DNA of 64,000 bases from Balanoglossus misakiensis (lineage: Eukaryota; Animalia; Hemichordata): contig CM082585.2 in NCBI GenBank assembly GCA_040954595.2, positions 6,845,808 to 6,909,807 on the forward strand. The letters run 5' to 3'. This document shows, piece by piece, positions 11,035 to 61,362 of the stretch; the first letter of the stretch is position 1; every line of letters begins with the position of its first letter. The notes beneath the pieces were generated by a model that saw only the letters and a list, made by a program, of their open reading frames with translations, made no database searches and had not been told where the DNA came from. Both the position numbers and the translations under genes were made by a program.

Positions 11035-11292
11035 TCATGCCAAAAGTTCGGGCACTAAATGGTCCATTTTGCCGTTCCCGTGTTTCGTCGATCTGGGTTG
11101 TACGTCGAGTGCCAGTTTCGAGGAATTCTTGGAGGAACGCTGTGACTTGCGTAGGAACGACATGGAGGAGATGGAAAATGTCCTTGTCCGCATGCTGGAC
11201 TGACTGCTCAGACTTCGAGAACGTTTCGACTTGGCCTGTCCCTGTCGTAACCACGAGCGTGAAGAGCGGTTTATCATTGATTTCAAGTCGTT
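11035..11292 (-). CDS. GPCR terminal exon 4 (helix 8 and Ser/Arg-rich C-tail)
   Basis: Acceptor TTGTTTTCCACACAG|AAC in phase 0; NDLKSMINRSSRSW...VPELLA-stop continues helix 8. Confidence 0.8.
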   Translation of the reverse strand, partial: NDLKSMINRSSRSWLRQGQAKSKRSRSLSSQSSMRTRTFSISSMSFLRKSQRSSKNSSKLALDVQPRSTKHGNGKMDHLVPELLA

Positions 11293-14200
11293 CTGTGTGG
11301 AAAACAATCAAAGTACATACAATCACTGTAGCCATATAGATACATGTAATTATAATGTGATTTTTGTACTACGAAACATTCAGTTGGTGAACATTTCTGA
11401 TTCACTAAACTCTACATCACCATATGCCACTTTTATCATTCAGCAGAGGCATAGAACATTGTATGCTCAAGCATGAGGATGCATACATTACAAGATATTT
11501 ATTACCCCAATATATACAAGGGTATATAAGAGGTATGCTTTCTTATGTGACATTATAAGGTGCATTCATTCGTAAACGATTTCATGAGTTAGCATAAACA
11601 TATCTGCTTTACTTGTTAGTATGGCCGTTTGTTGAGAAGCTAATTACACTGACAATTTCATAAAACTATCCAAAGCAGAACAAAAAGCCGGAGCTAATAC
11701 ATGTGGAAACATACTGTTCAGAATAGCCAGCATTTGGTTTACTGGGGTTTTAACTTTACTCATACACTGGAAACTGCTGAGGGTCGCCGCAGACCATGGG
11801 GGGGGGGGGGGGGGGGGAACGTACCCTGAAACCCTCGTTGAAGAAACCATAGATGAACGGATTGACGAAGCTGTGAGCCATGGCAATCCACAGAATGATG
11901 CAGTTCGCCACTCGCATCTTATCCTGGTATTCGATCTCGGTGTACAGCCATGGATAGGCGATGGTGACGAACTTGAAGACGTGCACCGGTAGCCAACAGA
12001 TGGCAAACATGGCGACAATTATAACCAGCATCTTGATCACCTAATGTAGACCGTAAACAAATTGTGAGTCGTTTAATACAAGTGTTAATTATTGAAAGAT
12101 TTAGGAAACCAAAATAGACAATTCTTAAATGATCCAAAGCAAATCATATGTATACTTTTCAAACACTGAATTTTCTGAAATGCGGTCATTTAGCTGTCGG
12201 CAGGCAGAATGTTCCTATAAACTCATTGCATTGATTTCGTGCCAATCATACGCACAACGTTAGCATGTGGTCCAGCTTCCCTTCGATGAAATGTATTTGT
12301 TTCCTATATACCAGCTGGGAGTTTTAGTGGGTACATCCCGAGGAAAAAAAAAGGAAAGGTGGCATATTATGTAGAATGGGCGTATTTAACTTGCCTGTGC
12401 CAGTTTCCTTGGAAACGTACATTTTATTTGACCTAATGTGGCCTTTTCGTGCTCAGGTCGTGTTTGCTGAAGGGATTCATGCCTGTTACCTGGACTGGTT
12501 TTTTTCAAAGCCACATTTCTCATCAGGCCAACATGGGAATGCCCATAAGCATATATTCCTATTGAGGTTACGTACTTTATCAACAAGCAAATTATACGGT
12601 AGATGGTTTTGATGTTTGTTTCACCAAATTATTTTTGAAGTACGAGATAAACAAACACGTCTAAAATTGAGAAATTGTGTCAGCCTTGGCACATTTTTTC
12701 AAAATGAGCACACACGTGTTTACACAATGTTCAAGTTCACTGGATTCTTTGTGGTACGAAAGATGATATTTGAACATGTGATATGTCCTGTGGTGATACC
12801 TTTACGTGAGTCACGGGTGGCTAGTACATCCAACCGTGTGCACTCCACGATCACAGAGAGCCTTTATTTTCACAAATGTCCCATTTATTGGACAGAAATA
12901 TCAGCTATTGTCGAGGAATAACGTTTAGTCGATGTGTTTAGATTTGCGCTCTGCTGCCACCATTTGCCAAGAACGCAAAAATACCATAAAAGAACCGTTG
13001 TATTTCTAGTTCATGTTTTATGCAGAGATCATTTGGGTTCCTGCTCAGATCTGGTGTTGGGCTAGGGTCATTCCTAATAGACTGGACTGAAATTAATAAC
13101 CATACAGCAAGCGCTATACTACATAATAGTATCACTGATAAGAAGTATTTCAAGCATGTATGCCTTTAATCAGGAATTACTTTGAATGTAATCAGGATAA
13201 TGATTTTGCACACTACATAAAATGTTCGCCAAGTTTTTGAGTAGATTTTAAATAGCAATTCCACCGTAAAAAAAATACTGACTTTTACACACACCAGAGA
13301 ATAAGCAGTAACGAAGCCAATCTGTGAGATTCTTTGAAATATATATGTCTTTTAAAAATATGATCAGGAAAGCCAGTGAAATTTATTCTGCTTGCCGGCT
13401 CATTATAATAATGACCGCCTCTGAGTGATATGTGACCCAAACTTATAACGATCCCCTGAAATTGATTGTTCAAATTAAGTCACCCATACCTTTTTCTTTG
13501 CCCTGGTTTGACTCTGATCTCTGTTCGTGTCGGCGTTACCGGGTATGGTTCTCCCCCAAAGGCGAACACCGATGCGCAGATAGGTGAAGCACAGTATAAA
13601 GAGAGGTGTGGTGTATGTGACCATGATGAAGAAGATCTCGTAGGCTTTGGCGAACTGGAAGTTTGGAAAGCCCTCGCTGCAGAAGTATATGTACCTGCCG
13701 TCGTAGTACACCTCGTCCACCCGGGTGAAGATGGTCTGGATGGTCGCCAGGGAGATGGCAATCACCCAGATGCAGACGAAGACGACTTTGCCCCGGTTTT
13801 TGGTGACCCGGACTGTGAGTGGGTATATCACGGCGAAGTAGCGATCAATCCCGACCGCTGTCAGTGTGCAGATACTAACGATGACAGACACCTGCAAGGG
13901 AAAGAATCGTGAATTACACTTCAAAAAAAAAAACCCTGAGTATTTTTAACTTATGACGCAGATGCTCACAGAAAAATAGACAGAACTGTCTATCAGATCA
14001 GATGTGACGTAGGGCCGCTTACGTTAATGGAAGTAAACGCATGTCAAATATAAGTCAGGTTTTTGAAAATTCCAAGATTATTACGAAAGATGAAGGCCCG
14101 CCGCCGCGGTAAAAAAGCGGAAAGATCAGAAGGAATTTATTTTTTCTGACATGTGACTCTTAGTAGTACTTTAAACCCCTTGTTAGTCTTGTGTCTTGAG

Positions 14201-26200: not shown

Positions 26201-27644
26201 CTAGATTTTGCCATGATGAAGTGAATGTGCCTTGGCCTGGAGCTTTAAAGGTACATGTACATTGTATACGGTCACCTCTATTTTACATATGCCTATATAT
26301 GGTCAAAAGGGCATGGCTAAGTGCTCAAATGACTATGTGGTGGCACACTTTTTTTTCATGTGTCCACCCACTGTAAAGCTGTGATTGGTGATATTTTGCA
26401 TAGCGGAATGTATACCTTTAAGTGAGATGCTGATCGTTGATGTGACATATATAAGGTGAAAAGTTAACACACTGGCCAGAAACAATATTGCGTGGACAAG
26501 GTGCCTTCTCAACAGTAGACATCTAAAAGCAATTTGCTGAACTGACGTTTCGCTGATTGAAAATGTTATCACATTTCCAGTCAAACGTAACTTATTTAGT
26601 ATCGCATTGCTTTACATCACCAAAGAACGTAAAGGAATACAGACATCTCTGATTGATATATATACATGTTTGGCTGAAGGGTATGTCTAACTCTCAGTTT
26701 TCTAATGACTATGTGTTGGTGTTATTTTTCGCATGGATGCCCAGTGAAAATCAGTGGCTGGCTAGATTCAACTTTCCATGGTAACTATGGCTAAATTTGA
26801 CTGAACCGGTATACCTTTTAATCAAGATCTTGGTTGAAAGGGGTGTCAGGAAGGTTCCAAGCCGAAAGCAATTACATTAATGGTCCACAGCGTTTCAGAG
26901 TGCGTAATTATATACTCTATTTTCCTGTGGTTCTGTATCGGGTAGCCAGACACATCCACACATCTTTTTCTGAAAATGATGTATAGTCAGCACCCAGCAA
27001 AACATATGTTCGTGAGCAATACATTTATCAGTTGAAATACATCAGCCATTAAAAATCATGGAAAATTAAATAATGCAGGTTTTGTATAACAAATGACAAA
27101 ATGTAAAATCATTTTCTGGCATTGAAAAATTAATTTTTTTTTGTATACCCCGGTAGATGAGTTTTAAAGTATAAATTCTATGACTCCAATAATACCGCCT
27201 TTAGCACTTTTCTTTGGACAGCTGCTGAAAAAAGAAGACTGCTTTCATTTCGACTTGTTCTTTCGACACGGACATCTCCAGTTTGGCCAATTGTGTACGG
27301 CTTACCTGCTGGAGGAAAATGACCGTGGGACACATCACCCTGCCGAATATCCAGTGACCCAGCATGATTGTCGGGAAGGTGAAGGGCATGCAGAAAACGG
27401 CGATCAACAAATCGGCCACGGCCAGGTTCACCAGGAAGGCCCTCAACTCGCACCGCGTCGCTTTCCCATTGATGAGCACGCAGAGCACGATGATGTTGCC
27501 GCTGATGGACAGCACCATGTTGAACGTGAAAGTGCAGATGAGCGTTACTTGGCTCTCGTAGGAGAACGCCAGGTCGTAGTAATCCCCGGAGAAGTTTGTT
27601 CCGTTGGGCGGCGAGTCGAAGAGAGAATATTCGTGCCCTTCCAT
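11035..27644 (-). CDS. Same neuropeptide GPCR, isoform B using proximal exon 1B, 404 aa
   Basis: Join of 27644-27306, 13891-13490, 12040-11825 and 11292-11035. The junction ...CPTVIFLQQ|VSVIVSICTLTAVGIDRY restores the canonical C3.25-R3.50 spacing of TM3. Confidence 0.9.
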
Positions 27645-30600
27645 AGCGAGCCCTCGTATGCGTGTGGTTCAGGTGTGTCGGTTACGTACGTCCCTCTGAC
27701 GTTACGTGTTCACTGTTTATGCACTGGCAAGAAACTATACTAGAAGTGAATAAGCCGTCATTTCCTTTATATTGCTCACTTAAGTCACGTGATACTTTAA
27801 ACAGGAAAACCAACATGTTTGACAGACAGGCATCAGTGCAAACCTTTCTCTGCTTTTAAGCTACTATAATACCGTTTTCTTGTCTGTTGAGAACCCAGCT
27901 GTCGGAAATCTGCCCCTGATTGCCATTTGTTCCATATTGTATACATGTATTTAGTGCCTGGCAGTCTCCTTACGTCACATGACTCGAAAATGGGTTTTAG
28001 TCCACAAAATGTTTCGACGGTGGAAAGGTCCTTATAGTAGTGACGAAAATAAAATTGACACAAAACATTCTTGTTGAATGGTTAATTGTGACAATTACAC
28101 ACACGTCTCCACATTGAGAAACGCCTACTTAATTAAGAAATGAATATTTCATCCCCAATTAGGGGCGCGTGATCTGAGACAAGTCAATCAGTGACCTGTC
28201 GGCATGCGTTTGCCATACTTGGCTAAGTGTTTAATGGGGCAAAGTCATTCTCCTTTTTGCAGTGTTTTGTGCATGACTATAGATTATTCTGCTCCATTGA
28301 TCTGAAAATGTCTGCTCATGTCCTGTGTATTTTATCTTTTTAATATTTCAAGAATATAATTTTGGAATTTACCAGAATTTATTCACTTGACATATATGTA
28401 TATTTAAACAGCAGGAATGCAATGCCAGTCAAGTCACTAGGATTCAATCAGCGAAACCACATAATTAACTTCAAGGCATGATAAAAATAATTAATTTAAG
28501 GTTACTCATAAAATAAGGCAATGTATGGATGAGGGATGGGTTTTCCCAAGTGCTATGTTATTATTTGCTAAACCGTAACGTTTTATTTTTTCATTCTGTA
28601 TGAGGTGGGTACTTCATTAGTGTGTGCTTAATTATTAGCAGTTGCGAGGATGAACCAGTCATTGTTCCACGTTTAAATGTTGTTTTGCCGATTTTATACC
28701 TGGTGAAATTTCCTCGAGGTACATGTATGCTTATTACAGTCAATATCCATGTGACGCGTGCGTGAGGAGCCCTTTTAAAACTCTATGGTGATACAGATAC
28801 AAAATTGCCTTCTGTTTCAATCCCTTTCGATCTAACTGGAATTTCGATTTTTGTGAAATCGTTCAAAGTGAATTTGAACCGAAAATCACGCCTGCAGTGT
28901 TTTTTGATGGATTTGCATCCGACGCATCGATATCGGAATGTTTCATTACCGGGGAATGGCAGGGCTATTAATGGGAATTTTCTGGCTTTGGCTTGAATGA
29001 GACAAATCTGATAATAACCCCCTGGAGTCACCCTGTTTGCAAGTGACACCTGATAAGCGCTTTGCGTGTCACAGTTTCTTACGTCATTCTGCCTATTTGT
29101 GAATCATGCTCACATATAGGAAATCCAAGACTTAAGATTTTGCCGCTGATTTCCCGGAAATATATTGATCATAGACATTTCTTGTTTTTCTCAAAAGACA
29201 GGAATATCAAACCGGCGGATGAAGTAATGGCACTTGTGTAGGTTAAATGCTTAAGCTTATGGCGGCAAAGAAGGCTTTAATTTGTACACAGATTCCGTAG
29301 TTGTGTTCTTCAGTTTCTGTGTGGCTGGAGCTGTATAATTGACGATGTAATTACTGCTTTTAACGATCTTGCCAATAAATCTTGATCTCATCTTCAAAGG
29401 TTAAACACAACATCCGTTTCAACCATGACATAAATCTGACATAGCTCGAATTAGCTCTTCAAATGCAGGTTAGGTTAGGGACGTATGAAATTCCATTATC
29501 CTCTCAAATCCGAAATACCATCCTCTTAAATCGCATCTTTACTTGACATCAGAGGACATCACATGGCATGAGACCTACGTATTTTGGGTGTTTTTTTTCA
29601 TGTCTTCATGCATACAGTGTATCACAACTTATACCTACGCTACAGGTAGTTGGCCTTGTGAAGGCAAACCTGAACAAAAGTGTTGGTTTTAAGCTGTTTC
29701 CCACTGAAGATACATTATAGCTTTCGTATGTTCGGTATGTTAATTTGTTTCACGATGTGATTCAATGGATGTGGGTGTACGCTAGTTGCTCAGTTATTCC
29801 TTGCATGGAAAAGTCTACCACGCTGTATACGTGCAGGACTGTTTTAAGTTTCACCACACGACACGATCATCATGCCCGCAAGAAGCTATTATAACTCTAC
29901 TCCCAACGTTGCCACTGAAACTTGTTTTCGCACATAACTGTCAGTATTAACATAAGCGCTATGAGCTTAGACCCTGTTCTGTTGACAACAGTCAGCCACC
30001 AGCAGGGACTGTCGAGTTGTCTATTGTCACTTTATCCTACAGAAGAACTGAGAAGTTCTTGCGGCATGGTGAAATGTTCAACATTTCATGAAAATATTTC
30101 CTGTTATATGATGCAACAGCTACTTTTGCTTTCGCTATGTGTTCTTCAGGGACAAGCTTAATGTGTTTTCCTTTCCTTTTATGCGTAAAAAGGTATGCAT
30201 GACTTCGAGTATTCTGAAAACATTAAAGGAAATATTCGATTTTTTCTCTCCAATAGAAGCTAAATGTTGAAATTGAAAACAGGATGTCAGGTCATGTTTT
30301 CTGTTCTATTCTTTAACCTGAACACCTGCACACATGGACTCCAAGTTCTATAATTATTGTTTGCACGGTATCGCTTCCCCCTTGGAATTTTTTCCTTTAT
30401 ATCCTGAAGAGACCCAAAGCGACGTATTCTATACGTTACTTAATATAATGGAGGACTATTTAGACGACTGCAAAGTTCACTCAGTAACAGTTATCTTCTT
30501 TTGGCAAATGTAGTAATGTCATGTATGCATAGTATCTTTCTGTACTCAATAAGAATTTGTTCCAGTTTGAACTTTCAAAAAGGTTTGGAATCAGAGTGTG

Positions 30601-33600
30601 AATTTGACTGCTGTGAAATGAAGTACCACCTGGCCATTTATGCGATACGTGATAGTTTTTACTGTGATAACGTGTAAATTGCATGTTGCGCAGCGATGGC
30701 CAGATAACGACCGGGGTAAATTGTTTTGCATCTTCATGCAATCAGCGTGAATTTATACATGTAACATCTCGCATGATTGCATCTGCACACTTAGGGAGCG
30801 TTACTATCTGTGTTCTTTGAAGCAGTTGCCAATAAACCAGATTCTTTGTGAAAACAGTTTTACTTATAAGTGATTCAAGGGTACAGTTTTCTGATGTTAG
30901 TATGAACTTTCAAAAGTTATGAGACTTTGGTTCAAATGATAATAAAGAAAACACAAATATGATTTTCAAAACACGTCCCGAACAAACATGTCAAATGTCA
31001 CAACCACTGTCGCAGAGATATATGTTATTCCGAGGTACTTTTGCTAGCTGATTCAGGCATTTATTTCATTAGGTGTAACAGATGATTTTTCTGCTCACTG
31101 CGAGATCTTGGGAGACGTGGTCAATTACCATAGCAACGGGTTGGTAACCAAGTAATACAATCAAGCTTTGTATGAAACTAGAATAGGTTAACAAATGTTG
31201 TAACTTTCACCACTGGCCATGTGTTGTTTGTCCTGGTGTCACATGAGAATATCCTATATAAACTATCTACTGGTACAGTCGAGCGAGATCTCACAGAGTC
31301 TCGTGGAGTTTGGAAAATAGTCTACTTATCTGGTCATCCGTGTGAAAAAACATAATAAAACAGTACATTTAAGTACGGTAGGAATTTGGACCACCATGAG
31401 TAAGTGTCGCTCTGCTCAAAGGGCACTGGTCGACTTACCTACTTACACCTTTATAATATACAAACACGCACGATTTAAGCACGTTTATTCGATCACTATC
31501 CTCGTAAGGAGATTGGCATCGAACTTAAATTTTCATCCTTAAGAGTGTATACTACTCTATGGATTATTTCAGGCCAAAGGTCTTGTCTATCAGGAACTAA
31601 TAGGATGTCAGTAGGCTTTATGTTGGGGCTAACATGGAATAGTTTACCATGAAGTATGACTCTCTTGCGCACTTTTAGAAAGGTCATGGCGAAAAGTAAG
31701 GAAGGTCTCAGTTCATATATTAGAATTACATATTTACCATTCATGCAAGCCATCTACATCAAGCAGATGAACCTTTAAAATCATCCAAAAAAACTTTGAC
31801 ATTGTGTATAAGGTTGGCACATGCTTAACTGGCTGTCAACAATGCTTATTGGGTGATATGGTTTATCACTTCGAGCGTAGGAGCATTTGCAGACAAAACG
31901 TCGGCCGTGTGTAAAAGGCTGCGCTTTATGTTTTGCAGGCAACAGTACTCGTTGGTTGACATGGCAACCTTTTAGCAATTTTGTTTACAACAGAACTTTT
32001 CTTGGCCCATGGCGGTGTGCATATCACGTCAAGCATAACAAAATTTGAAAACAAGACTCTAAAGACTATGCCTTCGTAAGAAGAAGTTGTTCTTGTCAGC
32101 TTTTCGTCTTTTATGTTTAGTGCAATGAAATGTTTGCCATACAACTTTTTTCCTATCATATGGAATATTTCCTACTTGTAACTAAATGCTTCTGTTTTTC
32201 ACGTGTTATTAAGGGATCATGTCATATTTTGTCGTTTGATTGCAATTTACATTCGGAACTGGAAGAAAGGCAGCATACCATTGGCATTGCTTGCAAATCT
32301 GTGTCCATTCGATCAAAAGCTAGATTAGTTTTGTTTCTGCAATACAGGGAAGATAGAAATCTCCCATCAGACTTGAAATCCTCGACAGACATCAGGGGAT
32401 ACTGCGTAGGTCTATCACTCTACAAGCACTTCTAATTTCTTGAGCATGAATTACAGTTGGCGTAGTTTACAGATGGTATCTCAAGAGGCTTTGTTCAACA
32501 ATTTAAAGCCCAAAGACTAATGCCCGAGCATCCTCGAAGTATGTAGTGTATGGTGGCGCTGTCATTTCGATTGCTGATAATAGAGATGATCGTGAGATTA
32601 CCGGGATCATTTGGAACAACGATGCAGGCCTGTTGCCTTTCAATGAAATGTTTTTGCAATGTGTGTCTATACTCTGTACAACCTTTTAAAACTTACAAAA
32701 ATATATGCATCGGGGTCTTGTTTCAAATATGTCCACTTGGTCTAGAATTAAGGGAAATATAGGGGAAAATGTGTGAAAATGATGAAAATGTTGCTCTATA
32801 TTTAGACAGAGAAAAATGTGTCAATCAAAGGGTTAAATCGATACGACAATGTTCGAATGCAATCGTGCAGTGACAGTCCACGATACTGGGCAACCAATCA
32901 ATATTCCAATTTGAACAGTTGTATTGAACATAGCAATTGGGCTAATTTTTGTTTTTAAAACAACATTGTAACATTGAACAGGTTGAATGTGTCTGTTTAA
33001 GTTGGGATATTGATTTGCTATAATGTACCACAGATTTAATCGATGGCGTACCTCTGAAATAAGTGCATTTTGAACAAAATTTGATTTATTGTATAAATAC
33101 CATGTCTTATGGATGGTCAAAGATCATTTGTGATGAAAGGTATATTGTAAAGACAACATATAGCAATTTAAGTAGAATTGAACTGGGGAGAGTTCGCAGT
33201 AAACAAAGGCAAAATCCATGAAGACGATTGGTAAAATCTGAGTGTTTTGCGAACAATAAGTGATTATGTTCGTCATGTCACATCATTTGATGGAGAAGAC
33301 TGACAATGTCATCAAAGAAGTGTTAAAAAAAGTTTAAGTTTCAGAGTGCAATGAAGATATTCCATATGATCAAATGAAAAAGGATGATGTGAGTGATATA
33401 GCCATAGCATTTTATTTAAACTTTCTGCAGCCTACCGTCGTCCTTGACAACACGATTCTGTTGCCCATTGTGGCGTCTTCTTTGATGAATCAGGACCGTC
33501 GAGGCATAACTCCTTAAAGTCTTTAATTGGCGGGGAAACTTGCAATAAGGGCAACTAGGATTGTGCATCGTGAACGCCTAGCGACTTTATTTTGCATTGC

Positions 33601-36600
33601 ACTACTGAAGCAAGTAAGCAAAAGCTCCACTCGCTTCTCTTTTCAATGTGCCTTATGATTTACTTTCTGCTGTCATGGGCAAAATCGGTGCAATGAAGCT
33701 AAGCGATCCATGAACCGATGTCTTTGCCTTTATTTATAAAGCATGAAAGATCCTCTTTGCTCATTGAATTTCTTTTTTTTAAAGAAATAACCGAGTCAGA
33801 AATGCGAGTTAAGTAGCATGATTAGTAAGCCAAAGGCGGAATACAAACTGACAGAATGATCCTTTCCAAGAAAGGCGTTTGCCTTTAGCCTCTCACAAAT
33901 TTCTGGCGTGATCCAGTGAATGTTACACTTCTAAAATCATAGATGGTGAAAACTTGAGGTACGTGTCAGCTGCTCACGATCGGAAAGGGCAGCTTAAAAT
34001 GTCATCATCTTGACATTTTGTCATTAACAGTCGGGTTGTACTTTTCCTCTATGACTTTTTTAACTTATAACTTTTGCTTAAGATTGACCTTTCTTTCATT
34101 TTCATTTCCAGTTAATACAGAGTGTATTTTGTAGGCAATATTTATGAAGTCATTCTGGGGTTACAGTAGTACTTTATTTTAACTGAAGTTAACAGCGAGA
34201 GAGAGGGGGGGGCTAGTACTGAGCCAGTCGCAGGAATTACCCTTCAACCTAAGGTCATCCTGGATACATTGCGAGTTCTGACTTTGAACAAGTCAAAATT
34301 TGGTCACAAGAGGGCGCTCTCAGTCTATGCAATATCTCCCCCCCCCCCCTTCACTATTTATCAAAATGCTGTTGATGACATTTTCTCACTTGTGACATAT
34401 AGTTGTGTAGGGAATTATTTGACTTAAATTGTCAGTATTTCAGGCCGTGGGTTAAGAGTTGGTCACGTGTAGCCAGAATAAAGAAATTCCACTTTTGACA
34501 ATCCAGATCATAATATCACTGGAAGCCATTTTGCAGTCATACAGTAGTTAAAACAGCACACATGCGTCAGAGTCTCTTGTGATGTTCAAGTTCTTGCGAA
34601 CAATCCCGCGTGATGTCGTTAGCGAAAAAGGGGTCATCAGTTAACAACAGGCGCCAGTCAGTCTAACAACGTAAAACGACGTTTAAATGTTACTTTTTTT
34701 GCAAATGAACGTCCATACGCTTTTTGTTTCATGTTCCTGTGTTTTTGCCACATGATATGCTACCAAAAATCAAAATTGTAATGGAGGTCCCTGTAAAAAC
34801 AATGGTGACTTCCTCCGGTATGTGGGGATGTTTGAGTTAGATGTGTTTAACTGGTGGATTGTAACTCAAGAAAGAAGTGAAATTTAATGATCACACTGGG
34901 ACATGTTATCAACCCTTATTAGCAAAGATCTGCATTCAGAGGCTTGTAAATGTATCGCGGCTATATCTGCAATGAAGACTTATGCTACAATAGTACAATA
35001 CAAAGGCAATTTCTGCAATGAAGACATAGACGCAGTGTCATTACTAGAAAATTGACGTAATGCCTAAACGCTTGCCTCTGGAGGATAAAGCAAGACTTGT
35101 TAAAAATAAAATCTGGTTGAGTTCGATCCCCCCTGGGCGCAAAATCATGTTAGACGAAGACTCTTTCCCAAGAGCTTAGAAAGTAAATTTGTTAATGCAG
35201 TGCCAGCAGATTGGGGAATTTAAACTGCATATACACGCGTTTGAGTTCAAACGAAACTGTTCATGATTGCACCATCTGAATGTAAATTATTCGTCAACGT
35301 ACACGCCGCCGTGGGTTGTTCCATTTGTGCAATCCTGAGCCATGAAGACCCGTACAATTTTTTTTGCTTTCAGTTTCACTCACGATCGCTTCTTTGATCT
35401 TCTGCATCCATAAAGATCTGCCGTCCCCGGGACAATCTTTCAGACAGCGAATATTCTGTCCATTGATCTGTTGTTGCAGGGCGCCATTAGTTATAAATTT
35501 GGTATTCATATTGCTTTTTAGCTGAAGTTTGGTCGACTGTAAAGTTCTAATCTGACATTTGTATCGATGGTTAAAATCTTTCAGCATTCTTAAGTAATTG
35601 GCTCAATGTCCGAATATACATTTGCAATTGCATTTCATTATTCATAAATATATCAAATAGGCTAGACGGGTCAGTTAAGAAGGCCTTTCCAAAGTGGAAA
35701 CATGTCGGTTTGGTTGTCTCATCTTGCTTCGCTGTTTATTCTTTTCATCAATTAATATGTGATAGTTTTGTTTCTAACTCGTAACTATTCGCGTTTGACA
35801 TGATATATCATGTTATTAACTCTGTTAATATTGATTCTATGAACTTGCATTCCAACGTCAACAGTAGTTGGGTTGTTCTTGGTTCGTTACTAATTTGCCG
35901 ATAACATGAATCTACATCTTGTTATTAACTTGTGTATTGATTCTTTAACCTTGTAATCAGACATCAACTTTAGTTGATCTTGCATTAGGCTATTGGGGCT
36001 CAATCCTTCTAAATGCAAGTCTTAACTCTTTATTGAAAAGTAATGTTTTACATTCCCATATAAACTAGGTACTTATACTTTCAGTGAAAGCTTATATTAT
36101 AACACGAGGAATCTTAGTGTTATCATTGACATGGGATTAAAATTTTGTAAACATGTGAGTAGCAGAATTGATGGTGCGAGAAATTTAAAGCCGGATTTAT
36201 CAATGAGGAATAGCCAAGGTATTAAGTGTAGAAAGAAAAATACTAAATGTAAAACGAAGTTGACAGCACAAAACGAAACATCCAGGGATAATTTCTTATA
36301 TAAAAGCTTGTTTTTTAATGAGATATTAGGTTCTACAAAGTAATATCAGCTCAAGGACTTAAATTCTTTTTAATGATATATTAGGGGTTAAGTTTTAAAG
36401 CGATATCCAATTTTCACTTATCATTATCCAAACGTAAGTATCAGATACCCATGTTGAAAATTTGTGGTTTGTGGGCATTGACTGGAAATATGGCTTTGAA
36501 ATAAAAGCATGCTGTTGCCACACAGTGCCGTGGTGCGTACGTCCTGAGCATGATTTGAAAATTGGAAATTGATTGAAATTTTGTTGAAATGAACATGGTG

Positions 36601-39600
36601 TTTAGAAGGGTTATTTTAGATTTCAATATTCAACATATGGTGTGGATGAGGGACGCACGCAGTCCCCATCTCCAGGTTTTTGTTCAACAGCAAGAATCAA
36701 GTATGTGTCTTCCGCGCGTGCAGTCAGCTAAGATTGAAAAAACTTGTGATGAAAATACACAACTGTCAGTTCACATATCAGAAATAATGTTGAGTATGTC
36801 TTTTATATTGCTTGCTTCCTTTGCTAAGCGACTGGTGCCATTGGGTTATGGGTTGGAATCCTAGATATCAATGTATAACTCACAATCAAAGAGAGATTAT
36901 TATTAGTTGCACATCGAAATTTCAATTAATTTCAGTGTCATTTATGATCAACATTAAGGCATTTTAGAAAGGTTGATTAAATACAAGCTCTTGGGAATAT
37001 ATGCGCGAAATATATAACGACGTATGAGCCACCACAGTACAAGCACTGGCCTACTTCATACTCTACCTAAGAAAGTGCAGTACGCACCAAGCTATATATT
37101 CCCCTGAGCTTTGTTCCATTGACATTTACCTTCCATTGTTCCTTAAAGGATAAAACTGACATCAGGGAATAAGGTTATTTGATTGCCTTTTCATCTGCTG
37201 CGGTGTCATACCAAAGATTTAGCTTGACTTGAATGTTCCATTTTGCTATATCAAAATACATAATGCACACTACATGTATCTCAGGATATTTCAAACATTG
37301 ACCATGTACCTTAGTGAATATGAATCTCAACCACTGGTATTTATATTTAGATATATACTATCTCAGTAAGCATTTTCATATCCAAATAACGCATGTACTA
37401 AGTAAATTTAGCCAATATCTCCAGTTCGATGTCAAAGCATTTCAATACATGTTGAATTCTACGTTATTTTGTAAGAACTAAAAGACAAAGTTAAAAATGA
37501 ACAGAAGACAGTCAGCTGCTTGTCTGCTGGACTTAAACCATACCAATATACTAACTCATAGAGACTCTGTCCAACCAGTAAGAGTAACTTAACAGCCTTT
37601 GCATCGTTCAAGAAATTGGATTACTACTGTAGCATGAAATTGATCCAAACATCGCCTTGTATTTTTGTAATGCAATTCATCAATTAATGGAATACAAACT
37701 TTGTGTTTGTAATGACAGTATAATCAGAGGGACCCATCTCTTGATACACATAGCCTACCCATTTAGCGACAGTGTTTTGTTTGAGCCTGGCGTCTCGCTG
37801 TGTCCTCGTTATCTTAAGAAATATGCTGAATTGCAAAGGTGAATATGGCTCAGTGAACATTGTTATTTGTTTCCATCACAAGGAGAATGTACTGTGTGTT
37901 CGTAATTTCCCAACAGAACCTAAACACTGATTGCAAGGTGCTTTCCTTTTCCGTAATTACAGGAGAATTTAAATGGTATTTAAGAAATAGCTCTTTCGTT
38001 ATTTGCAAGAGGTTGTAGTTTGTGATCTTTGAAGCTTTTGTTTGACTTAGTCTCCTATGGGAAGAGGCAGAGAATTGTATGTCACCAATCTACATGCTGG
38101 CGGCGCTCAACGTGTCACCATGGAAACAACGCGCTCAACCAGGAGTCTGCAGGGAACAATTTGATGTTTTTTTGTATGTGAAAGCCTACGAATCAACAAC
38201 TTCTACTGAGAACTACCGTTGTTCTCTTACAAGCTGTAATCCAGGCTTCTTGAAGGAAACAAAAAGAATTAATGATTGTTGAGAGCTGTATAACAAAACC
38301 TCTGGCCTGTGGATTACTGTGTCAGTGATGATTTTCATAAATGCGAGAAAACGAAAACCCACGGCAACAGCAATGCCAAGAGTAGGCGGAATTATTTTAT
38401 AAGGACACTACGACCTTAATATCCCATGAAATTAGTGCTGATGAATATTTTCAACACGTACAAACCACGGGATTAGTATCACTTTTATGTGATTTGAGAT
38501 TTATTGCTGGCGTGTGATTAATCCTTTTTCATTCACAAATCTTGGGAAAGAAAACGGTATGTTATTTTGCAGAGATGCCAAATCTCATGTCAATGCTTTT
38601 CTTTACTCAATTATTTCAGATGTCTTATCCTGAAAATTGCATATCAAGGGGAATTACTGCGGCTTATAAGTTAACTGGAAAGTAATTTCTCTTTTGAAAA
38701 TAGTTTGAAAAGATAAAAATCATGAAATAATCCTTCACACATCAAATTCCTACAAGTGTGTGCAACACTGTGTATCTGCCGTAGTGTGACGCATCATTAT
38801 AGATTTAGCACAAACATACATGTATACATTGTGGAAAGTGTTAATATGAATTGTTTCGCTTATTTTCAGCGTCACAAGAAAGTATGTGGGTTTGCGCAAA
38901 ACATGAGTATAGTGCTCAATTACAAATTGCACTCATTGGCTCACTTTTGCGATGTGACGCCCAAATGATTTCTTTGTACTCGTATTTCAAATACATGTGA
39001 CTTTCCCCTGACGACTAATGCACCAAAAGAAATGTTATCCGCGCTTGACGCCACCAACGGTTGCATAATTGTGCCTCCGAAGAGCTGACATTTCAGTAGA
39101 ATGCCATTGAGAAGTTGAAAAGAGTTTCATTTCATCGAAGGCACTGAGGCGAACTCCTAAGGTCAAAATCATTCTGAAATTAAGGCGCTATATGCCCACA
39201 CCTATTGATAACCGATTGTCGTCTCATTTTGTTAGCCGTGGGCAAAAATGGAAATAATCTTCGTGATGCACGATTTCTATTATTTATTACGCAAAACTTG
39301 TTTTTTTCAAAGCAATTTCCGTTGTTGTTTTTGCAAGAAAAGTTCTACCCTCCAAAGCTTCATTAGCTGCTTCGACAACCATTTTCTACAAGTCTTTCTT
39401 ACTCGTGCGATGTTTCTTGACCGAGAAGATACATCAAAAATCCCACAGCCCAGAGCAACTATCCTCCACCCACAGCCGCGGTGTACTTCAAACAGAATTA
39501 CTCAAACTGTTGGCGGCACTTCATAAAAGCCAAAATCTGAAGAATTTTTATCGTGATATTTTCCTTCCACGTTTTAACACTGCTGCGAGTGTCGCTACAA

Positions 39601-42600
39601 TTTGTTTTGAAACGAGAGCGTTCGTCGGGGCTTTTACAAACAGATGATGCAGACACACCGTATGTCTGAATACACGGCACATTCAGATTAGGCATACCTC
39701 TGAAAATGGCCACGTCTCTCAGTTGTAAAACGCTCGTGGGCTACTGTTTCTTTTTCACTAGCAAGAAAGGTATAGTTAAAGTTTACAAACAGGTTGACTG
39801 TCACTGTATCTGGGACTTTTCCCGCTGTTCATCGCGACATTCTGTAACATTCGTAAATGTACAAAAAATGCTTCAGGATGTAGCATGTGTATGCTTGGAA
39901 CAAGATATGTCTGGAGGTCGGTCTGTGAAGATAAGTGTACTTCAAACATCTTCATTCAGTAAATTGAAGTATGTAGCTCTACGGTACTCACAGAGATACG
40001 GACAATGGTTAAAGGGGCAGGTGTAAAGTTTGATAATTGATGATGCTTGCCCAACCCTATTCTAATATTCTTCAGACGAGATACTGACGTTAACATATGA
40101 CATGATTTACTTGAAGGTTCAATTGTTCTTTCTGCTCACTTTTGGGGGTTTGAAACACTTCCTGGTGACTGGAGACATCAATAATAATTATGTGACAATG
40201 GCAAAAACTTCTCATTTCAGGAGCGTACTTGATGGTTGAGAAACAAAAATCGAGTTAAGTATGGCCCCTTTGATTTTTGGACACTAGATAGCGTTTTGCA
40301 TCAATAAAACAGCCGATTTAAATTGACGAACAGAAATGCGAGACAGAACACTGCTAACAATCACGTCAGCTTTAAATCAGTATCTGTAAAAGAATCCTCA
40401 TATCTGGAGTAGTAATTATTGACATATACTCATTTCTATAAGAGGTTATAAAATGCTAACCAATTTGGCTGATGAATATTAAGTTTCACGAATATGGCAC
40501 GCAGTGATATAGTTTAGCTCTGAACAGTTTAACCAAGATGTTTTATCTGCACCTGCCCACACTGTTGAAAGAATGTATCGCCTCCATAACCTGTCAACGC
40601 TATTCAAAAGACATTTCATAGGAAGAGAGAAGACAACTGGATTAGTCATGACGTAGCTAATACGGTACCTTATGGTTATGATGGAAACATCGTAGATGGA
40701 TATAAGTATAATCTCTGAAGCTCAAGTTGTTCAGAGTGACTTTGCTCTTTGAGACTCTTTGTTTGGAGAAGATGTAGTCATGGACACAGGCATTATAATC
40801 GGCCTCAGCTAAATGGGTCTGGCTCCAGTTCATCATGACGTGACACATCTAACCCTTTCAATGCCATCGTCAAATTGTCGTCATTTTCACAAAATAAACC
40901 TAGCTTAACTTTTCCCATATTTTTTTTCTAAAATTTTGATCAAGACCTGCAGAGAATAGAAAATAATGTCCATTTGGTCCAAAATTAAAGGGAAAATGGG
41001 GGGAAAATGTTTGAAAATTATAAAAATGTTGCAACACATTTTGGCGTTCAATCAAAAGGTTATCACTTATACATATACATGAAGGGTGTTCAGTCTGGTG
41101 AAAACTACTATACAAGGAAACGACGAAGAAAATGTTAAAGGTTTAACAAATTAAATGAGGAGAACTCTATTCTTCCATCCCGGGCATCACCTGTTGTTAA
41201 GACGTCACTAGCCCGGCATAGTGACACCAACATGCATTATAAGTGCAAATTTAGTTTTAAAATGATTGAGTTGACACTGCCTCCGTCTTAATGCACGCAT
41301 TATCGAAGCAGTGATGTGAAACTTACTGTCTCGTTACCTTGTGAAAGAACAACGCCACAAGATAGTGTTGTTATCATGCAAGACACGTGCAAATACATTG
41401 TAAACACCCACTTTGTTTCAGAAATGGACTAATGTACTCATACAGTTACGCCGTATGAAGTTAGTGTTTCCTGAAATTCACTGTGTCGTAAACCAGAGTT
41501 GTAAATTCCCTAAAGCAACTTAAGCACGTCTAGCAAATAAGCCATGATAATGCATTATAAAGAAGAATATGAAAATTTAAGTGTTGCAAAGCCCCTGCAA
41601 GGGTGTGCCAATAATCACAATAAATCGATATCGACATCTGGGAATATCTTGAAAATTGAGCCATTACAGTGTTTTTACAACTGGAGTTGATTGGCATCGT
41701 ATAAATCGGTTCGTAGTGTTCTCAAATCCTCGGGTATCCCATGAGAACACTGTCGCTATTTTCATTAGTAAACTGCCTGATCTCCTTAGCTTTTCTCGTT
41801 GTGTAGAGCGAAAGCCCCTCTTAATTGGGGTCGTGGTTCCTGTTGTGACTTGCCGACAAGAGCCCCGGACAGAGATAACGATCACTGATCAGGGTTTTGC
41901 TATAGTAGAATTAAACTCTGCAATGATTTTCGGTTTATTAATTTATTCGGAAACCATGACGTTGTGGGCAGCGAGGGAGGTCGTAATGACCCTATAAACC
42001 TGCCAGTTAAGAGTTTCATCTTGGGACTTGGGCGGAATTTGTGGGGCAGAAACAGTGTACTGACACTTGCATTATTCACGTTTTGTCGGAAAACTGTATC
42101 ATGGCACTGGGAGAATTTTTCTTTAGATGTTTCAATCATCTCGCAGACTGCTTGTGCTGCATGTCACCTGGTAACATCCCATCAGAACTTATCCCTTCAG
42201 TAAGCCAGTCAGAGAATATCCTTTGCAAACACGCAAAAATATCAAAAGAAAGTTAGCATGATTGTCACATTACACGCGGATCTTTGGAACGGTTTAACAC
42301 CGTATTTTAATACTTCTAAATCGCCTCCGCTTGAGTATACAAATCATCAGCCAAGTCTTTCCACACATTTAAAAAGAGGGTTTACTGAGTTTAATTCCCT
42401 GCAATCATGAGCGAGCGTACGTGTTTCGCTTTAAGACGTGATGAAATGGTGGCTTCCCATCCTATGATGTTTATAGAAGTGATTGTACTTATCAGTGCAC
42501 TGCAAACGCTATTGGCAGAGAATGCGATGATTTAGCGTGGAATCGATATTATACTTTTCAATTGCAGGGCGCGTCATATCGACCCTTTTAATTGAAATGC

Positions 42601-44939
42601 CAAAGCACTATCCCCAGTCCCGTGGGTATTACCACTTAAGTTTATTCACTAAACCTGTTTTCAAAGTAGTTCAGTCACCCACGATGTTGTCGCTTGGGCG
42701 ACTTTCAGTGTACCAGCATTTTGAGATCAGAAGTTACACACATTGGTATCCATTCCATGTTTCAAATTAATCGGACATGATCCTTGAATAATGTTTATTG
42801 TTTGCCATCATCATCAAGAAGGTCTGTTTTGGGATGAATGGGGAAACACAAATGTTAATGCTATAACGAATAAGATCGTAGCCTTTGCGTAAAAGTTTTG
42901 ATCATAAACATGAACGCTGATAATGATCAAATACTTTTTTTGATTTTATAAAGCAAGCATATTAGTGCAGTCCGGTTCGGTTGACAACATTGGTGCCATT
43001 CTTCTTTGTGGAGATGTTCACGTAGCAAGTCACCCAATCACCCTTGAGGAAATTTACAGCAGGCAAAACAGCAACATCATCTCGAGAAGTCCGGCGTGTT
43101 ACACTATAGTGCTTCTAATCTAGTCGGAATAACGATGAACCACGTACACATTGCGCATTAAAACACACACAATCAATTTTTCACGTAGATAGATTTCATC
43201 GGTTTTGTCAGACAATTTTGAATATTGATACAGCTTCCACAGTGCATACGAGACTAATCAGGGCCAGTAGAAGTCTGCATCAATTTACGACCACTTTGCC
43301 CTCAAGGATTGAAAAACAGTATTATACTGTGGGCGTATGCGAACACATACATTTTCTGTAATCTGCGTAGATCTGTGTACCTGCAGATGTCATCGCTGAC
43401 AAATAAACCTGTCTCCTTTCATCATGAGTCGTTATGTGCTTCAGGTTGGAATGTTCATCCCCCCCAAAATTCCTTTGTAGAATTCACTTACCGTTACATC
43501 CGTAATAAAATCCGTGATAATAATTATCCCCATCAAAACAAAGACCGACAATGAAACCCTACAGTGTATATATATTCTTGGAAAGATCCAAGTTTGGTAA
43601 ACTCAATAATGAAGTTTCATTTCACGTAACTACGGTAGAAGTCATAAAAGTTTTATTCAACACTCCCTGGGGAAATACTGAAATATTTCTGATTGGTATT
43701 TGCTACCGATCTTATAAGCACTCTATAACTGTCAGCAATTTTTCTGTCTTAATTTGGTTTTTGAAATATATATTATCCGAGTCAATATAATCATCCAATA
43801 TTAGTCTGAGAGAATTAGTCATTTAAAGCGAGCTATACTTATAAAAGAACCGCATATCTTTTCGTGGTTTGTAACACATTGATTTAAAACAATTTGATGG
43901 TTGTATAGTAATTTAGCTTTAGGCACTGCCTTAATCCCATCCAACGCAAGTGAGATTAGCATCAATGTCTGATTACTAGTATCAAAATTTCATGGTGATG
44001 ACTCATTATCCGTTGTGAATGAATATTCATGCATCTTGGATCGTGCCTTGCATACTTTGGTTTGTGGATTTATCACTGGGCGCACATACACTAGCTTGTT
44101 AGCTGTCAAGTAACGATTATTCATTTCAATTGAGCGTGTCTAGTTTAATACACTACAAATTGCACTGCAATCTGAAGTTGCTATTATCGTAATGCAATTT
44201 ACAAGACAACACAGCGTATTCTTATAGCCACAATTCATTTTACTGTTCCGGAATTGCTGCTATCATCTTTATGCGTATAATAATATCCATTCTGTTTACG
44301 TTTGAAAATGGGCAAACGTTTGAGATCAATTTGTTGCTGACTACGGGGTAGTCCTTTGTCATGTGGTGTAGCTTCTTATGTACTTTCTCGGCTAGTCTGG
44401 GTTTGTGCGTTTACATTGCGTGTATTATTTTCGTCGTCAAAAGTACAGTAGACAAAGTAAAGCCCTTGCAAGCTGTTTCTTAACCTTTGTAAATGACTTT
44501 TGATTGAAATCAAACAATGACAACCAGACTGTGTGTTACACGCATCACTTTAAAATTCAAAAAGTATATGTCCTGCTATGTGCATTCAGAGCCTTACGTG
44601 CCAAACTCTTCTCACCTGTTGCAGAAAGATGACCGTCGGGCACATCTTTGCGCCGAATATCCAGTGTCCCAGCAGTATGGTAGGAAATGTGAACGGCATG
44701 CAGAAGACGGCCATCAGCAAGTCGGCACACGCCAGGTTGATGAGGAAAGCGTTGAGGTAAGTCGCCGAGGAGTAATGAGAGATCAGCACGCACAGAACGA
44801 TCACATTCCCCGTGACTGACATGAGCATGTTGAGGCAGAAGGCGGTGACCAGCACCATCCTGCTGTCGTACGGCAGAGCAAGGTCGTAGTATTCGTAGTC
44901 TACTTCGGAGGAGTTGGTGCCGTTCGCAGACAAATTCAT
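11035..44939 (-). CDS. Class A neuropeptide GPCR (leucokinin / luqin-RYamide / tachykinin / GPR83-like group), isoform A using distal exon 1A, 399 aa
   Basis: Join of 44939-44616, 13891-13490, 12040-11825 and 11292-11035; all introns are GT-AG and phase 0. Seven TM segments with GN (TM1), NLAxAD (TM2), WIFG..MC, DRY, CWLP and NPFIY, plus helix 8 (FRNDLKSMI). ICL3 LWGRTIPGNADTNRD..KKKVIKML resembles leucokinin/RYamide-type receptors. The family assignment is from motif recall, not a search. Confidence 0.75.
11798..11817 (+). repeat. G20 homopolymer
   Basis: Twenty consecutive G, read as C20 in the GPCR pre-mRNA starting at intron position +8. Confidence 0.9.
11825..12040 (-). CDS. GPCR shared exon 3 (TM6, TM7)
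   Basis: Acceptor TCTACATTAG|GTG; donor AGG|GTACGT; 216 nt; CWLP and NPFIY motifs. Confidence 0.95.
13490..13891 (-). CDS. GPCR shared exon 2 (TM3 second half, TM4, ECL2, TM5, ICL3)
   Basis: Acceptor TTCTTTCCCTTGCAG|GTG; donor AAG|GTATGG; 402 nt; contains DRY and the ECL2 Cys (YFCSE). Confidence 0.95.
15747..15939. mobile_element. 185-bp MITE with TTAA TSD (family A, most intact copy)
   Basis: TTAA-AGGTATACAGTCACCT ... AGGTGACCCTATACCT-TTAA; TIRs match at 14/16; related copies at about 26245 and 26655. Confidence 0.85.
20523..20861. mobile_element. Degenerate TTAA-type MITE, about 335 bp
   Basis: Left end GGTAGTATGCGCC; right end ...ATGCTACC-TTAA. Internal blocks CAGTGACCCCTA and ATGAGAACAAT recur at about 2665 and 2770. 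The left TSD is decayed. Confidence 0.5.
22053..22564. mobile_element. Non-autonomous DNA transposon (MITE), 504 bp, TTAA TSD, Kolobok/T2-like
   Basis: TTAA (22053-22056), AGGCACGTAAGCTGCAACT ... AGTTACAGCTTACGTGCCT, TTAA (22561-22564); TIRs match at 18/19; no coding capacity. Confidence 0.9.
23690..23780 (+). mobile_element. Possible degenerate tRNA-derived SINE
   Basis: A-box-like GTGATTAGTGG and B-box-like CTCAAATCC, then TGTCCTCGGGCAAGGTAC, which resembles the TGTCCTTGGGCAAG core of many SINEs. Confidence 0.35.
24800..25125. repeat. Degenerate tandem repeat, period about 90-115 bp
   Basis: GACACTTTT.AAG.CA.ACTAATTGGTT...ACAC.GCAAGTTGGAAATATT at about 24902 and 25014; partial units at about 24801 and 25098. 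Confidence 0.65.
26245..26421. mobile_element. MITE family A, copy 2 (internally deleted, insertion in left TIR)
   Basis: TTAA-AGGTA...GGTCACCT...TGGTGGCAC...CTGTGATTGG...TATACCT-TTAA aligns with 15751-15935. Confidence 0.8.
26655..26821. mobile_element. MITE family A, copy 3 (degenerate, left end lost)
   Basis: TGAAAATC..TGGCTAGAT..CCATGGTAACT..GCTAA..TATACCTTT is colinear with the right part of copy 1. Confidence 0.65.
27306..27644 (-). CDS. GPCR alternative first coding exon 1B (N-terminus to mid-TM3, 113 codons)
   Basis: MEGHEYSLF...MCPTVIFLQQ; donor CAG|GTAAG at 27305; two N-glycosylation sequons. Confidence 0.92.
27740..27792 (-). promoter_or_regulatory. Putative core promoter of GPCR exon 1B
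   Basis: Minus-strand TATAAAGG at 27771-27764; TCACGTGA E-box at 27785-27792; 17-nt block shared with the exon 1A upstream region. Confidence 0.5.
35660..36300 (+). mobile_element. Decayed non-LTR retrotransposon (CR1/L2/Jockey-like) reverse transcriptase remnant
   Basis: Motifs in the expected order, with stops and frameshifts: KKAF (about 35680), FADNMNL (about 35895, from FADD), LNPSKCK (about 36000), RNLSVIIDMGLKFCKHV (36107-36157, from KDLGVxxDxxLxFxxHI). Confidence 0.7.
44616..44939 (-). CDS. GPCR alternative first coding exon 1A (N-terminus to mid-TM3, 108 codons)
   Basis: ACC-ATG start at 44939; MNLSANGTNSS...MCPTVIFLQQ; donor CAG|GTGAG at 44615; three N-glycosylation sequons. Confidence 0.9.
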
Positions 44940-45029
44940 GGTGTCGATGTGGATCGAGAAAACTGTGAAGCTGTGTCTTTCACTTCAGGTGCCGTCGTCA
45001 ACTCGGCAGAAAAAATTTGTCACTCTGAG

Positions 45030-45089
45030 TATAATGCTCACTAAAGCGCTTGTCAGACACCTCACTTTCTTCTGTCAGATCACGTGATC
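45030..45089 (-). promoter_or_regulatory. Putative promoter of GPCR exon 1A
   Basis: Plus-strand TATAATGCTCACTAAAG (45030-45046) matches 27768-27784 at 15/17; palindrome GATCACGTGATC at 45078-45089. Confidence 0.45.
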
Positions 45090-50920: not shown

Positions 50921-52473
50921 CTTGAATGTCCCCCACTTCGCGGTTTAAGACGCAAACGGAGTCATTTACAGTGCGAACCTGTCACTTGCTGACAAACCAG
51001 GAAGTAAATCAAGTGTGTGCATTTAGCTCCGATTTGGATTCTGCTTCAAATCAAGTTCGGATGGCAGAATCTTTTTAAAAAAACACCAAAAAGATGAAAT
51101 GAAATAATAATAGGCGAGTACAAAATGATAGTGAATGTTGCAGTTCAGAATTTTAAATGGTCTAAGATAAGTATTTCGCGGTGAGTTGGACAGAACAGTA
51201 TTTCTATGTTCCTCCCCTTCTCGCCTGATTTGAATTGAATCTGAATCTGAAAAAAGTATCGATTTCGTAGGGAAACCCCCGTTTGTTTTCCCATACTTGT
51301 TTCCTCCAGTCATGGCGGGGAAACCCGATTCGCACGTTTAAAAGTATGGTGCGCTTCTGATATAATGGCAAAAGTGTATTTTTAACCAAATATGCTGCGT
51401 GTTTTAGTTTCTTCAAATCATTATATACGATGTCGATGTTATTGTACATGTTATAAGGGGCCGTGGATTATTAAAGCACACACGACAAAACAAAAAAGCG
51501 CGTTTGATATCCGCTCCCCAAACGACGAGTTTGAGTTAGGAATTCATGATTTTAACTTTCAGTTTCACCATAGACAGTAAAAACAACAAAATCGCAAAGC
51601 TTCAAGCCTATAGATCCGTGAAGTAGGTTATCCTCGGTGTTTGTGTGTTTTTAATTATGAACAAGTAAACTATCATCAAGTCCACATGCAAAATGTGTCA
51701 ATTTGAATACAAGCCGTGAATTGCATCGTTCAGAGTTTTTGACGCGCCCTCCCCGTAGTTAATTTTCAGCATATAGCCTTGCCTAAAAGTAAAAAAAAAG
51801 TTCTTTCCCTCATTCACCATTTACGTGCGCCCGGGTTACAACCACAGGTTTAAGGCCTGTCATAACTTTTTCCCCCGCACTTCAACTTCAAGTTCAGCTT
51901 TTATATTGCATGTAGTTAGTCCACACCCCGGGTCCACACTGAACAATATTTCTCTACCCTTGGAGATTTTTGTCGTATTAAAAATAGATTTTGCAGCTCG
52001 CTGGGGCTTGAAACATTCGCCCAATTATGTTTTGTGGTGTGTGAACTGTGACGAAACTCGGTTCCCTTAAAATCACATTATAGACAGGTCCTGGTCCGCA
52101 CAAGTATGGTCAGTTTAGTTTTATCAGTATAACGCATTTGATAAAGCGCCCCTTGTTTCGGGGGAAAAGCGTATAGTATTCAATTTATAAGCTTAATCTA
52201 GACAAATTGTCTGCATGATGTATGTTCATGTAAGTTTGAAAGTACATGTACATTTCTCAGTAATGTACATGTATCATCTGCAGATGTCAGCAGTGTTTCC
52301 CACAATGCACCGCAGGTGACGTGTCAACGATTACGCATACTCATCCGCCATTTTTCAGCAAGTGTGTGTCTGTTGGATCTGCCACGCACGACCTAGGCGT
52401 TTTGGACCGGTGTAGGGAGCAGTGAACTCCTTCGTAATTCTGTTTTATACCCACTAGAAAGCACAAATACGCG
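50921..52473. promoter_or_regulatory. Divergent promoter region between ATG3 and TM9SF2
   Basis: 1553 nt separate the two start codons. ETS-type CCAGGAAGT at 50997-51005; ZNF143/Staf-type TTCCCACAATGCACCGC at 52297-52313; TGACGTG at 52317-52323; YY1-type CCGCCATTTT at 52345-52354. Confidence 0.65.
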
Positions 52474-61274: not shown

Positions 61275-61362
61275 TTAATCACCACCATGGTTCAGTGTGA
61301 ACCCATTGTTTTATATGGTAGGGTTGGACCTCTATAGAGGGAACCAGGAGTGAAAAGGTTAA
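61275..61362 (+). mobile_element. MITE family B copy
   Basis: Same core and the same GTGAAAAGGTTAA end as 55458-55546; TTAA on both sides. Confidence 0.7.

Follow-up and report, generated by a model that had tools for sequence, protein, structure and literature searches.

A receptor gene of the hemichordate Balanoglossus misakiensis in which two old alternative fronts probably share one set of downstream exons

On the reverse strand of a 64,000-nucleotide stretch of the Balanoglossus misakiensis genome (GenBank assembly GCA_040954595.2, contig CM082585.2, positions 6,845,808 to 6,909,807 of the forward strand; the whole stretch is called the window here), two similar exons each encode the beginning of a receptor, and the locus raises the question of whether both are living fronts of one gene or whether one of them is a dead copy, a piece of another gene or a haplotype artefact. 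A first-pass annotation of the DNA had argued that both are under purifying selection. The reading favored here, with a probability of roughly 0.8, is that of one peptide-receptor gene whose first exon exists in two intact copies of ancient origin (1A and 1B) and whose exons 2 to 4 are single, the fronts probably having their own promoters and yielding two full receptors for the same or a similar ligand that would differ in the first intracellular loop (ICL1) and in expression. The coding parts, in window coordinates and with transmembrane helices (TM) and extracellular loops (ECL) numbered as usual, are as follows.

44616..44939, reverse strand: alternative first coding exon 1A, 108 codons from ATG to donor, phase-0 donor CAG/GTGAGA
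27306..27644, reverse strand: alternative first coding exon 1B, 113 codons from ATG to donor, phase-0 donor CAG/GTAAGC
13490..13891, reverse strand: shared exon 2, encoding the remainder of TM3 including DRY, then TM4, ECL2, TM5 and ICL3; AG acceptor, GT donor
11825..12040, reverse strand: shared exon 3, TM6 (CWLP), TM7 (NPFIY) and the start of helix 8
11035..11292, reverse strand: shared exon 4, a C-terminal tail rich in Ser and Arg, with the stop codon

Exon 1A encodes an N-terminus with three N-glycosylation sequons, TM1, an ICL1 reading HYSSATYL, TM2, ECL1 and the first third of TM3; exon 1B covers the identical span, and its ICL1 (GKATRCEL) is basic and typical of the family. Both frames are open throughout from ATG to donor, the two donors fall at the same codon in phase 0, and exons 2 to 4 are bounded by AG and GT ends, so that the earlier statements that neither first exon has a stop or frameshift and that both keep consensus donors were borne out. 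Products joined by coordinates are open, with 399 residues via 1A and 404 via 1B, the introns to exon 2 measuring 30.7 kb and 13.4 kb, respectively. A simple scan found no AG with a pyrimidine tract in the 300 nt ahead of either ATG, as expected for first exons; since 1B lacks an acceptor, it would be passed over in transcripts beginning at 1A. The PF00001 (7tm_1) profile is matched above cut-off by both first exons (positions 1-65), by exon 2 (68-195) and by exon 3 (202-260), and the motifs GN (TM1), LAxxD (TM2), the TM3 Cys, DRY, CWLP and NPxxY, which are typical of the rhodopsin class, are all present in both spliced products. By its sequence the gene is a rhodopsin-class (7tm_1) G-protein-coupled receptor (GPCR) of peptide-receptor type, with a predicted, possibly amidated, peptide as ligand.

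Within the window only one body is available to the two fronts. A hidden Markov model (HMM) of the family, run over 858 six-frame tiles of the window with stops read as X, and nhmmer searches with each exon recovered two fronts and one body; no private downstream exons of 1A or 1B were found in the 64-kb window, and no TM3-TM7 remnant lies between 1A and 1B, where the top HMM score is 3.0 bits, while the genuine TM exons score 103-217. The neighboring genes upstream of 1A are Atg3-like and TM9SF-like, which leaves 1A without a separate body in the window, and the first-pass view that a full receptor from 1A requires the shared downstream exons holds there. A weak family-HMM match (11.6 bits) to the TM5-ICL3 region, including a PGN motif, lies within intron 2 at 12634-12449 on the reverse strand; 12 locally shuffled windows peak at 2.0-9.4 bits, and an nhmmer search with the DNA of exon 2 fails to pick it up. 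This match may stem from a degenerate remnant of that exon's 3' portion or may be due to chance.

The first-pass argument for selection was drawn from 17 codons (CMPFTFPTI[L/M]LGHWIFG) at which 1A and 1B were said to differ by seven synonymous changes and one replacement (CTG/ATG, L/M). A codon-by-codon recount gave exactly these numbers, at the very codons that had been listed (Fisher p = 2e-5, with 11.2 synonymous and 39.8 replacement sites), but as a sample the stretch is unrepresentative: it is the best-conserved part of the front, its proportion of replacement differences (pN) of 0.025 being the minimum of 19 sliding windows (range 0.025-0.51), and the divergence of ICL1 had been missed. 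Over 92 alignable core codons the replacement and synonymous divergences are dN 0.28 and dS 1.24, with omega (dN/dS) 0.23 (bootstrap 0.08-0.41); with the 17 codons removed omega is 0.30 (p = 2.5e-5), and a maximum-likelihood codon model rejects omega = 1 (likelihood-ratio statistic 78.8) and shows dS to be saturated. Saturation rules out both a pair of haplotypes and recent gene conversion, and conversion as the source of the near-identical 3' part of the two exons was also rejected on its proportion of synonymous differences there (pS = 0.74). The first 1 kb of the two introns has no similarity (score 21, against a mean of 23.9 and a maximum of 30 in 60 shuffles), in agreement with the earlier remark that the adjacent intron sequences look dissimilar. 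A pairwise omega between paralogues is nevertheless no proof that both copies are alive today, because a low value would outlast the recent death of one; for this purpose the first-pass argument was too weak, and its conclusion is carried instead by orthologues.

The closest proteins come from acorn worms. In Ptychodera flava, two automatic RefSeq models of isoforms of one gene, XP_070538840.1 (isoform X1) and XP_070538841.1 (isoform X2), carry a 1B-type and a 1A-type front, respectively, and are identical past a junction that is also that of the window gene. Over the last 71 residues of the front, 1A matches isoform X2 at 62 positions and 1B matches isoform X1 at 63, with cross-type comparisons giving 49-51/71; the shared exons match P. 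flava at 117/134 (exon 2), 60/72 (exon 3) and 56/83 (the tail, exon 4). Exon 1A is thus conserved like the shared TM exons and above the tail (62/71 against 67.5%, p = 1e-4), and is not behaving as an exon freed from selection. Judged by these identities, both 1A and 1B have been constrained since the split from P. flava, and the variants listed for 1A, mostly synonymous, agree with this.

ICL1 is the fastest-diverged part of the front and is fixed in a form specific to 1A. An AlphaFold model of the P. flava isoform X1 orthologue (mean predicted local distance difference test score 81) has seven helices and helix 8, with TM1 at residues 28-58, ICL1 at 59-66, TM2 at 67-94, TM3 at 103-134 and the exon junction at 112/113. 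At ten positions the two 1A sequences differ consistently from the two 1B sequences; five of these fixed differences lie in ICL1 and two in TM1, and the remaining three are at the first residue of TM2, within TM2 and just before TM3. Nine loop codons hold 15.5 replacement differences as against five in the last 29 codons, the TM2-end/ECL1/TM3 stretch, which also has 14 synonymous differences. The 1A loop is identical at 8/8 residues between the window and P. flava. When Lys and Arg (His uncounted) were tallied in a 10-residue loop window in the 72 of 80 sequences in which the anchoring motif was found, not all of them independent, the only two with neither residue were the 1A sequences; one other has a single basic residue and 69 have 2-5. 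A Gln of TM3, at what we take to be position 3.32, is present in both 1A and 1B; in related vertebrate receptors this residue touches peptide amides.

Trees were built from three selections of the 80 proteins, with 33, 16 and 30 sequences; these were named entries from hemichordates, echinoderms, amphioxus and molluscs, unnamed metagenome fragments being left out. In the 16-row tree the sequences group by exon and not by species, with support of 99/97 for the 1A pair and 96/88 for the 1B pair, and forcing the window's 1A and 1B together in a species-wise clade was rejected (approximately unbiased (AU) test, p = 0.002). The duplication is therefore old, as the saturated dS had already indicated and as the first-pass annotation had supposed. 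Glandiceps (Spengelidae) has an orthologue of the shared body that falls in with 1B in both the 33-row tree (96/85) and the 16-row tree (92/85), which hints that the duplication is older than the Ptychoderidae-Spengelidae split; a ptychoderid-only origin was not rejected (p = 0.069 and 0.23). Published work places the split of P. flava and Schizocardium at more than 370 million years (PMC11175523). Exon 1A may have arisen by exon duplication or may be the surviving front of a tandem gene duplicate. A near-length search with 1A returned four matches among five candidates, none with the 1A loop. A Saccoglossus entry, XP_006817252.1, is a partial model of 120 aa, on a contig of 13.5 kb, that stops precisely at a junction of the 1A/1B type and has a basic loop; it may represent either a second front of the gene in Saccoglossus or part of a different paralogue.

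Variation was read from contigs derived from three DNA sequencing runs of one sample in one study, possibly the window's own source; the search for runs that contain this DNA listed these and no RNA run, a result that does not bear on expression. A single contig of run X2 spans 44576-45120, including all of 1A, with four differences and no gap, and all four differences in 1A are synonymous (p = 0.004 at a synonymous share of 24.5%). A contig of run X1 over 44794-44957 has six differences, the four listed comprising three synonymous changes and one Glu-to-Asp in the N-terminus, so that over both runs 7/8 listed differences in 1A are synonymous. In 1B, two contigs of run X1 have one exonic change among the differences listed, Leu8Phe. 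Contigs of the same sample differ by ~1% from each first exon. Between 26500 and 46400 the non-coding DNA has many substitutions and indels relative to the contigs of both run X1 and run X2, and at 44484-44605 two haplotypes can be told apart; the genome is highly heterozygous.

Upstream of the two ATGs, common motifs occur in the same order, ATCACGTGA at -149 of both and AGTGAGCA.TATA at -103 (1A) or -136 (1B), giving two tentative features.

45030..45088, reverse strand: candidate proximal promoter of 1A, with ATCACGTGA at -149 and also AGTGAGCATTATA at -103 relative to the ATG
27768..27793, reverse strand: candidate proximal promoter of 1B, ATCACGTGA at -149 and AGTGAGCAATATA (into TATAAA) at -136 from the ATG

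The 200-nt regions upstream of 1A and 1B align better than 999/1000 shuffles. One allele at 27792 alters the second base of the 9-mer and keeps CACGTG.

Several points weigh against the two-front receptor as proposed. That both fronts are spliced to exon 2 in this species is inferred from the genome and the P. flava models, and both exons are presumably translated. The P. flava isoform X2 model starts at a Met matching M38 of the window and so is without half of TM1 and the N-terminus before it; the cause is either truncation of the model or damage to the 5' end of exon 1A in P. flava. When 11 ICL1 columns were removed from the alignment the species-wise clade was not rejected (AU p = 0.083), the 1A/1B split still having support of 89/89, and Glandiceps yielded just one orthologue, of 1B-like type. 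Among 634 unrelated tiles, 3 score as high against the region upstream of 1A as the corresponding region of 1B does, and the match was picked post hoc, so that a duplicated promoter is only suggested. Variants are known from one sample alone. Finally, the run X1 contig leaves 1A at 44794, inside the exon, into 85 unrelated letters, which like a loose end of 30 letters had no match in the window; this may reflect an allele with an insertion, an incomplete copy located elsewhere or an artefact, and the run X1 variants are perhaps not from an intact allele, since the contig runs into unrelated letters. Run X2, made from the same sample, has an unbroken contig across the break point.

In the mechanism that we propose, each front would have its own promoter, and its transcripts would be spliced to exon 2. 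The two products are nearly identical along the ligand-facing stretch and the TM3 Gln is kept, which makes a shared ligand likely. ICL1 packs against helix 8 and G-beta, and the uncharged, fixed loop of 1A would probably alter coupling, basal activity or trafficking. This functional effect is the least certain step, drawn from general knowledge of the contacts of ICL1, and its odds against the rival that both fronts signal alike are about even. Taken to its full extent the proposal is of a promoter-selected ICL1 switch, in which one orphan deuterostome receptor, its pocket kept, would carry a basic or an uncharged loop and would answer the same peptide with different coupling, basal activity or trafficking from cell to cell, an arrangement that may predate the Ptychoderidae-Spengelidae split; in this complete form it is rather doubtful.

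The strongest competitor, which competes with the loop-switch step only, is that both isoforms are made and their protein difference is incidental, the duplication having been kept as a second promoter with subfunctionalised expression and like signaling. It is a credible alternative to which we give somewhat less than even weight. It would account well for the stretch from the end of TM2 to TM3, where the 29 codons show so few replacements among their synonymous changes, for the sharing of exons 2 to 4 with ICL2, ICL3 and the tail by both products, and for the candidate elements upstream of each first exon. It fits less well with a 1A loop that is unique in the 72 sequences and yet wholly identical between the species, which suggests selection on the loop itself.

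It is improbable that 1A, though transcribed, mainly gives a truncated or non-canonical product, either a 116-residue read-through peptide with 2.5 TM or a 6.5-TM form begun at an internal Met, that might be a modulator. The internal Met at which the RefSeq isoform X2 model begins, the frame beyond the 1A donor, which stops after eight codons, and the 30.7-kb intron all lend themselves to this idea; against them stand the full N-terminus of the window's 1A with its three sequons and complete TM1, a donor that matches that of 1B in codon and phase, and the retention of the extracellular ligand-facing residues.

Death or decay of 1A in recent times, its low dN/dS being a relic of past constraint, is likewise improbable. 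Such an exon would be compatible with the pairwise omega between paralogues, the run X1 contig break could mark a disrupted allele, and the end branch of the window's 1A is somewhat longer than that of P. flava (0.16 vs 0.08). Its identity to P. flava is nonetheless level with that of the constitutive TM exons, the variants of run X2 and of both runs together are synonymous in the proportions given above, and frame and donor are intact.

That 1A belongs to a separate tandem gene, with exons 2 to 4 elsewhere or lost from the assembly, or is a haplotype artefact is largely refuted: the family is expanded in hemichordates, none of the listed contigs spans the full 17 kb between 1A and 1B and no clear sister relationship of 1A and 1B emerges from the tree, but further body exons are absent between the two and elsewhere in the window, P. 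flava offers an independent case of both fronts joined to a single body, and the synonymous divergence is saturated as against the ~1% by which contigs differ within the sample, so that the earlier exclusion of an artefact stands.

Among known systems the nearest is the P. flava gene itself (XP_070538840.1/XP_070538841.1), which is orthologous and has two fronts, the same junction and one identical body; the N-terminus and half of TM1 that its isoform X2 lacks are supplied by the window's 1A. In the variable-first-exon genes (clustered protocadherins, UGT1 and GCNT2), tandem homologous first coding exons are spliced to common constant exons (PMC1885805). The window gene resembles them in having tandem homologous first exons with same-phase donors and one constant set, and differs in having only two variable exons and a junction inside a TM helix of a GPCR rather than between domains. 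The insect ETHR-A/B pair shares its front and swaps the part from the end of TM4 to the C-terminus by alternative last exons, which changes ligand sensitivity (PMC8175484). Like the window gene, ETHR is one neuropeptide GPCR gene in which duplicated exons swap part of the seven-transmembrane (7TM) bundle, with conservation across species and clades formed by isoform; the window gene is its mirror image, swapping the front, likely by promoters, with the ligand-facing part nearly unchanged. Alternative 3' exons of the ETHR type were considered and set aside, the variable part here being the front and exons 2 to 4 each having one copy. Insect Grs are not known to be rhodopsin-class GPCRs. In Drosophila Gr39a (also Gr23a and Gr28b), large alternative 5' exons with donors only are joined to shared 3' exons of a 7TM receptor and are under purifying selection (PMC2204066); the donor-only alternative 5' exons, the shared 3' exons and the purifying selection are as in the window gene, and Gr39a differs from it in that its variable exons encode six of the seven helices. 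The excerpt of PMC3510462 mentions ETHR splice variants and no alternative fronts. A literature search whose coverage leaves out most subscription papers gave no description of a two-front arrangement for this gene, and a search for XP_070538840 gave no match.

The nearest relatives of the receptor form an expanded hemichordate group, followed by receptors from echinoderms, amphioxus and molluscs. In the PDB the best sequence matches for the P. flava orthologue are the vertebrate orexin, NPFF, NPY, tachykinin and PrRP receptors (E 6e-49 to 1e-40), and its ESM Atlas neighborhood comprises the same peptide-receptor families; PDB and Atlas scores are level across them, so by this similarity test it is an orthologue of none. 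The RefSeq names of the P. flava isoforms conflict, isoform X1 being called 'QRFP-like peptide receptor' and isoform X2 'RYamide receptor-like'. The first label was rejected on similarity only (QRFPR 134 bits vs 170 for OX1R and 168 for NPFFR2). Luqin/RYamide receptors are absent from cephalochordates according to PMC7041311, and the amphioxus proteins among the near relatives would, if orthologous, argue against the second label. A place among leucokinin-like or 'bilaterian uncharacterised' receptors is a conceivable alternative. The parts available of PMC6188537 and PMC5818035 hold no identification of the receptor's family. Nine P. flava paralogues are each listed on a 35.9 Mb contig and four of Glandiceps on an 18.5 Mb contig, which suggests clusters in acorn worms. 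A Tegillarca model of 691 aa holds two receptor units of the family in tandem and is probably a fused annotation of neighboring paralogues.

Elsewhere in the window, exons of an Atg3-like autophagy gene lie at ~48500-50300 on the reverse strand (PF03987 match on one open reading frame), and a multi-exon TM9SF/EMP70 family gene (PF02990) lies divergent from it at ~52400-59700 on the forward strand. Dispersed short repeats of 70-83% identity form three sets, at 15748-15915, 26264-26388 and 26630-26798; at 32725-32794 and 40961-41032; and at 55463-55548, 58905-58980 and 61279-61364. Bins near 26.5-27.1, 30.5-31.8, 32.5-33.1 and 40.4-41.1 kb draw many contigs and thus likely contain high-copy repeats.

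No principle is overturned by this gene, as variable first exons and receptor isoforms with a split helical bundle were already known, and the P. flava arrangement had already been modelled automatically in RefSeq; what is new here is the complete N-terminus of 1A and the conserved swap of the loop. For annotation, models with one isoform drop one of the fronts, and RefSeq gives the two P. flava isoforms two family names and shortens one of them. For the biology of the family, the two predicted products make up a natural chimera pair already sifted by evolution, identical from the middle of TM3 onward, near-identical on the ligand face and different in ICL1 in a conserved manner, through which the role of ICL1 in the coupling of peptide GPCRs would be testable.

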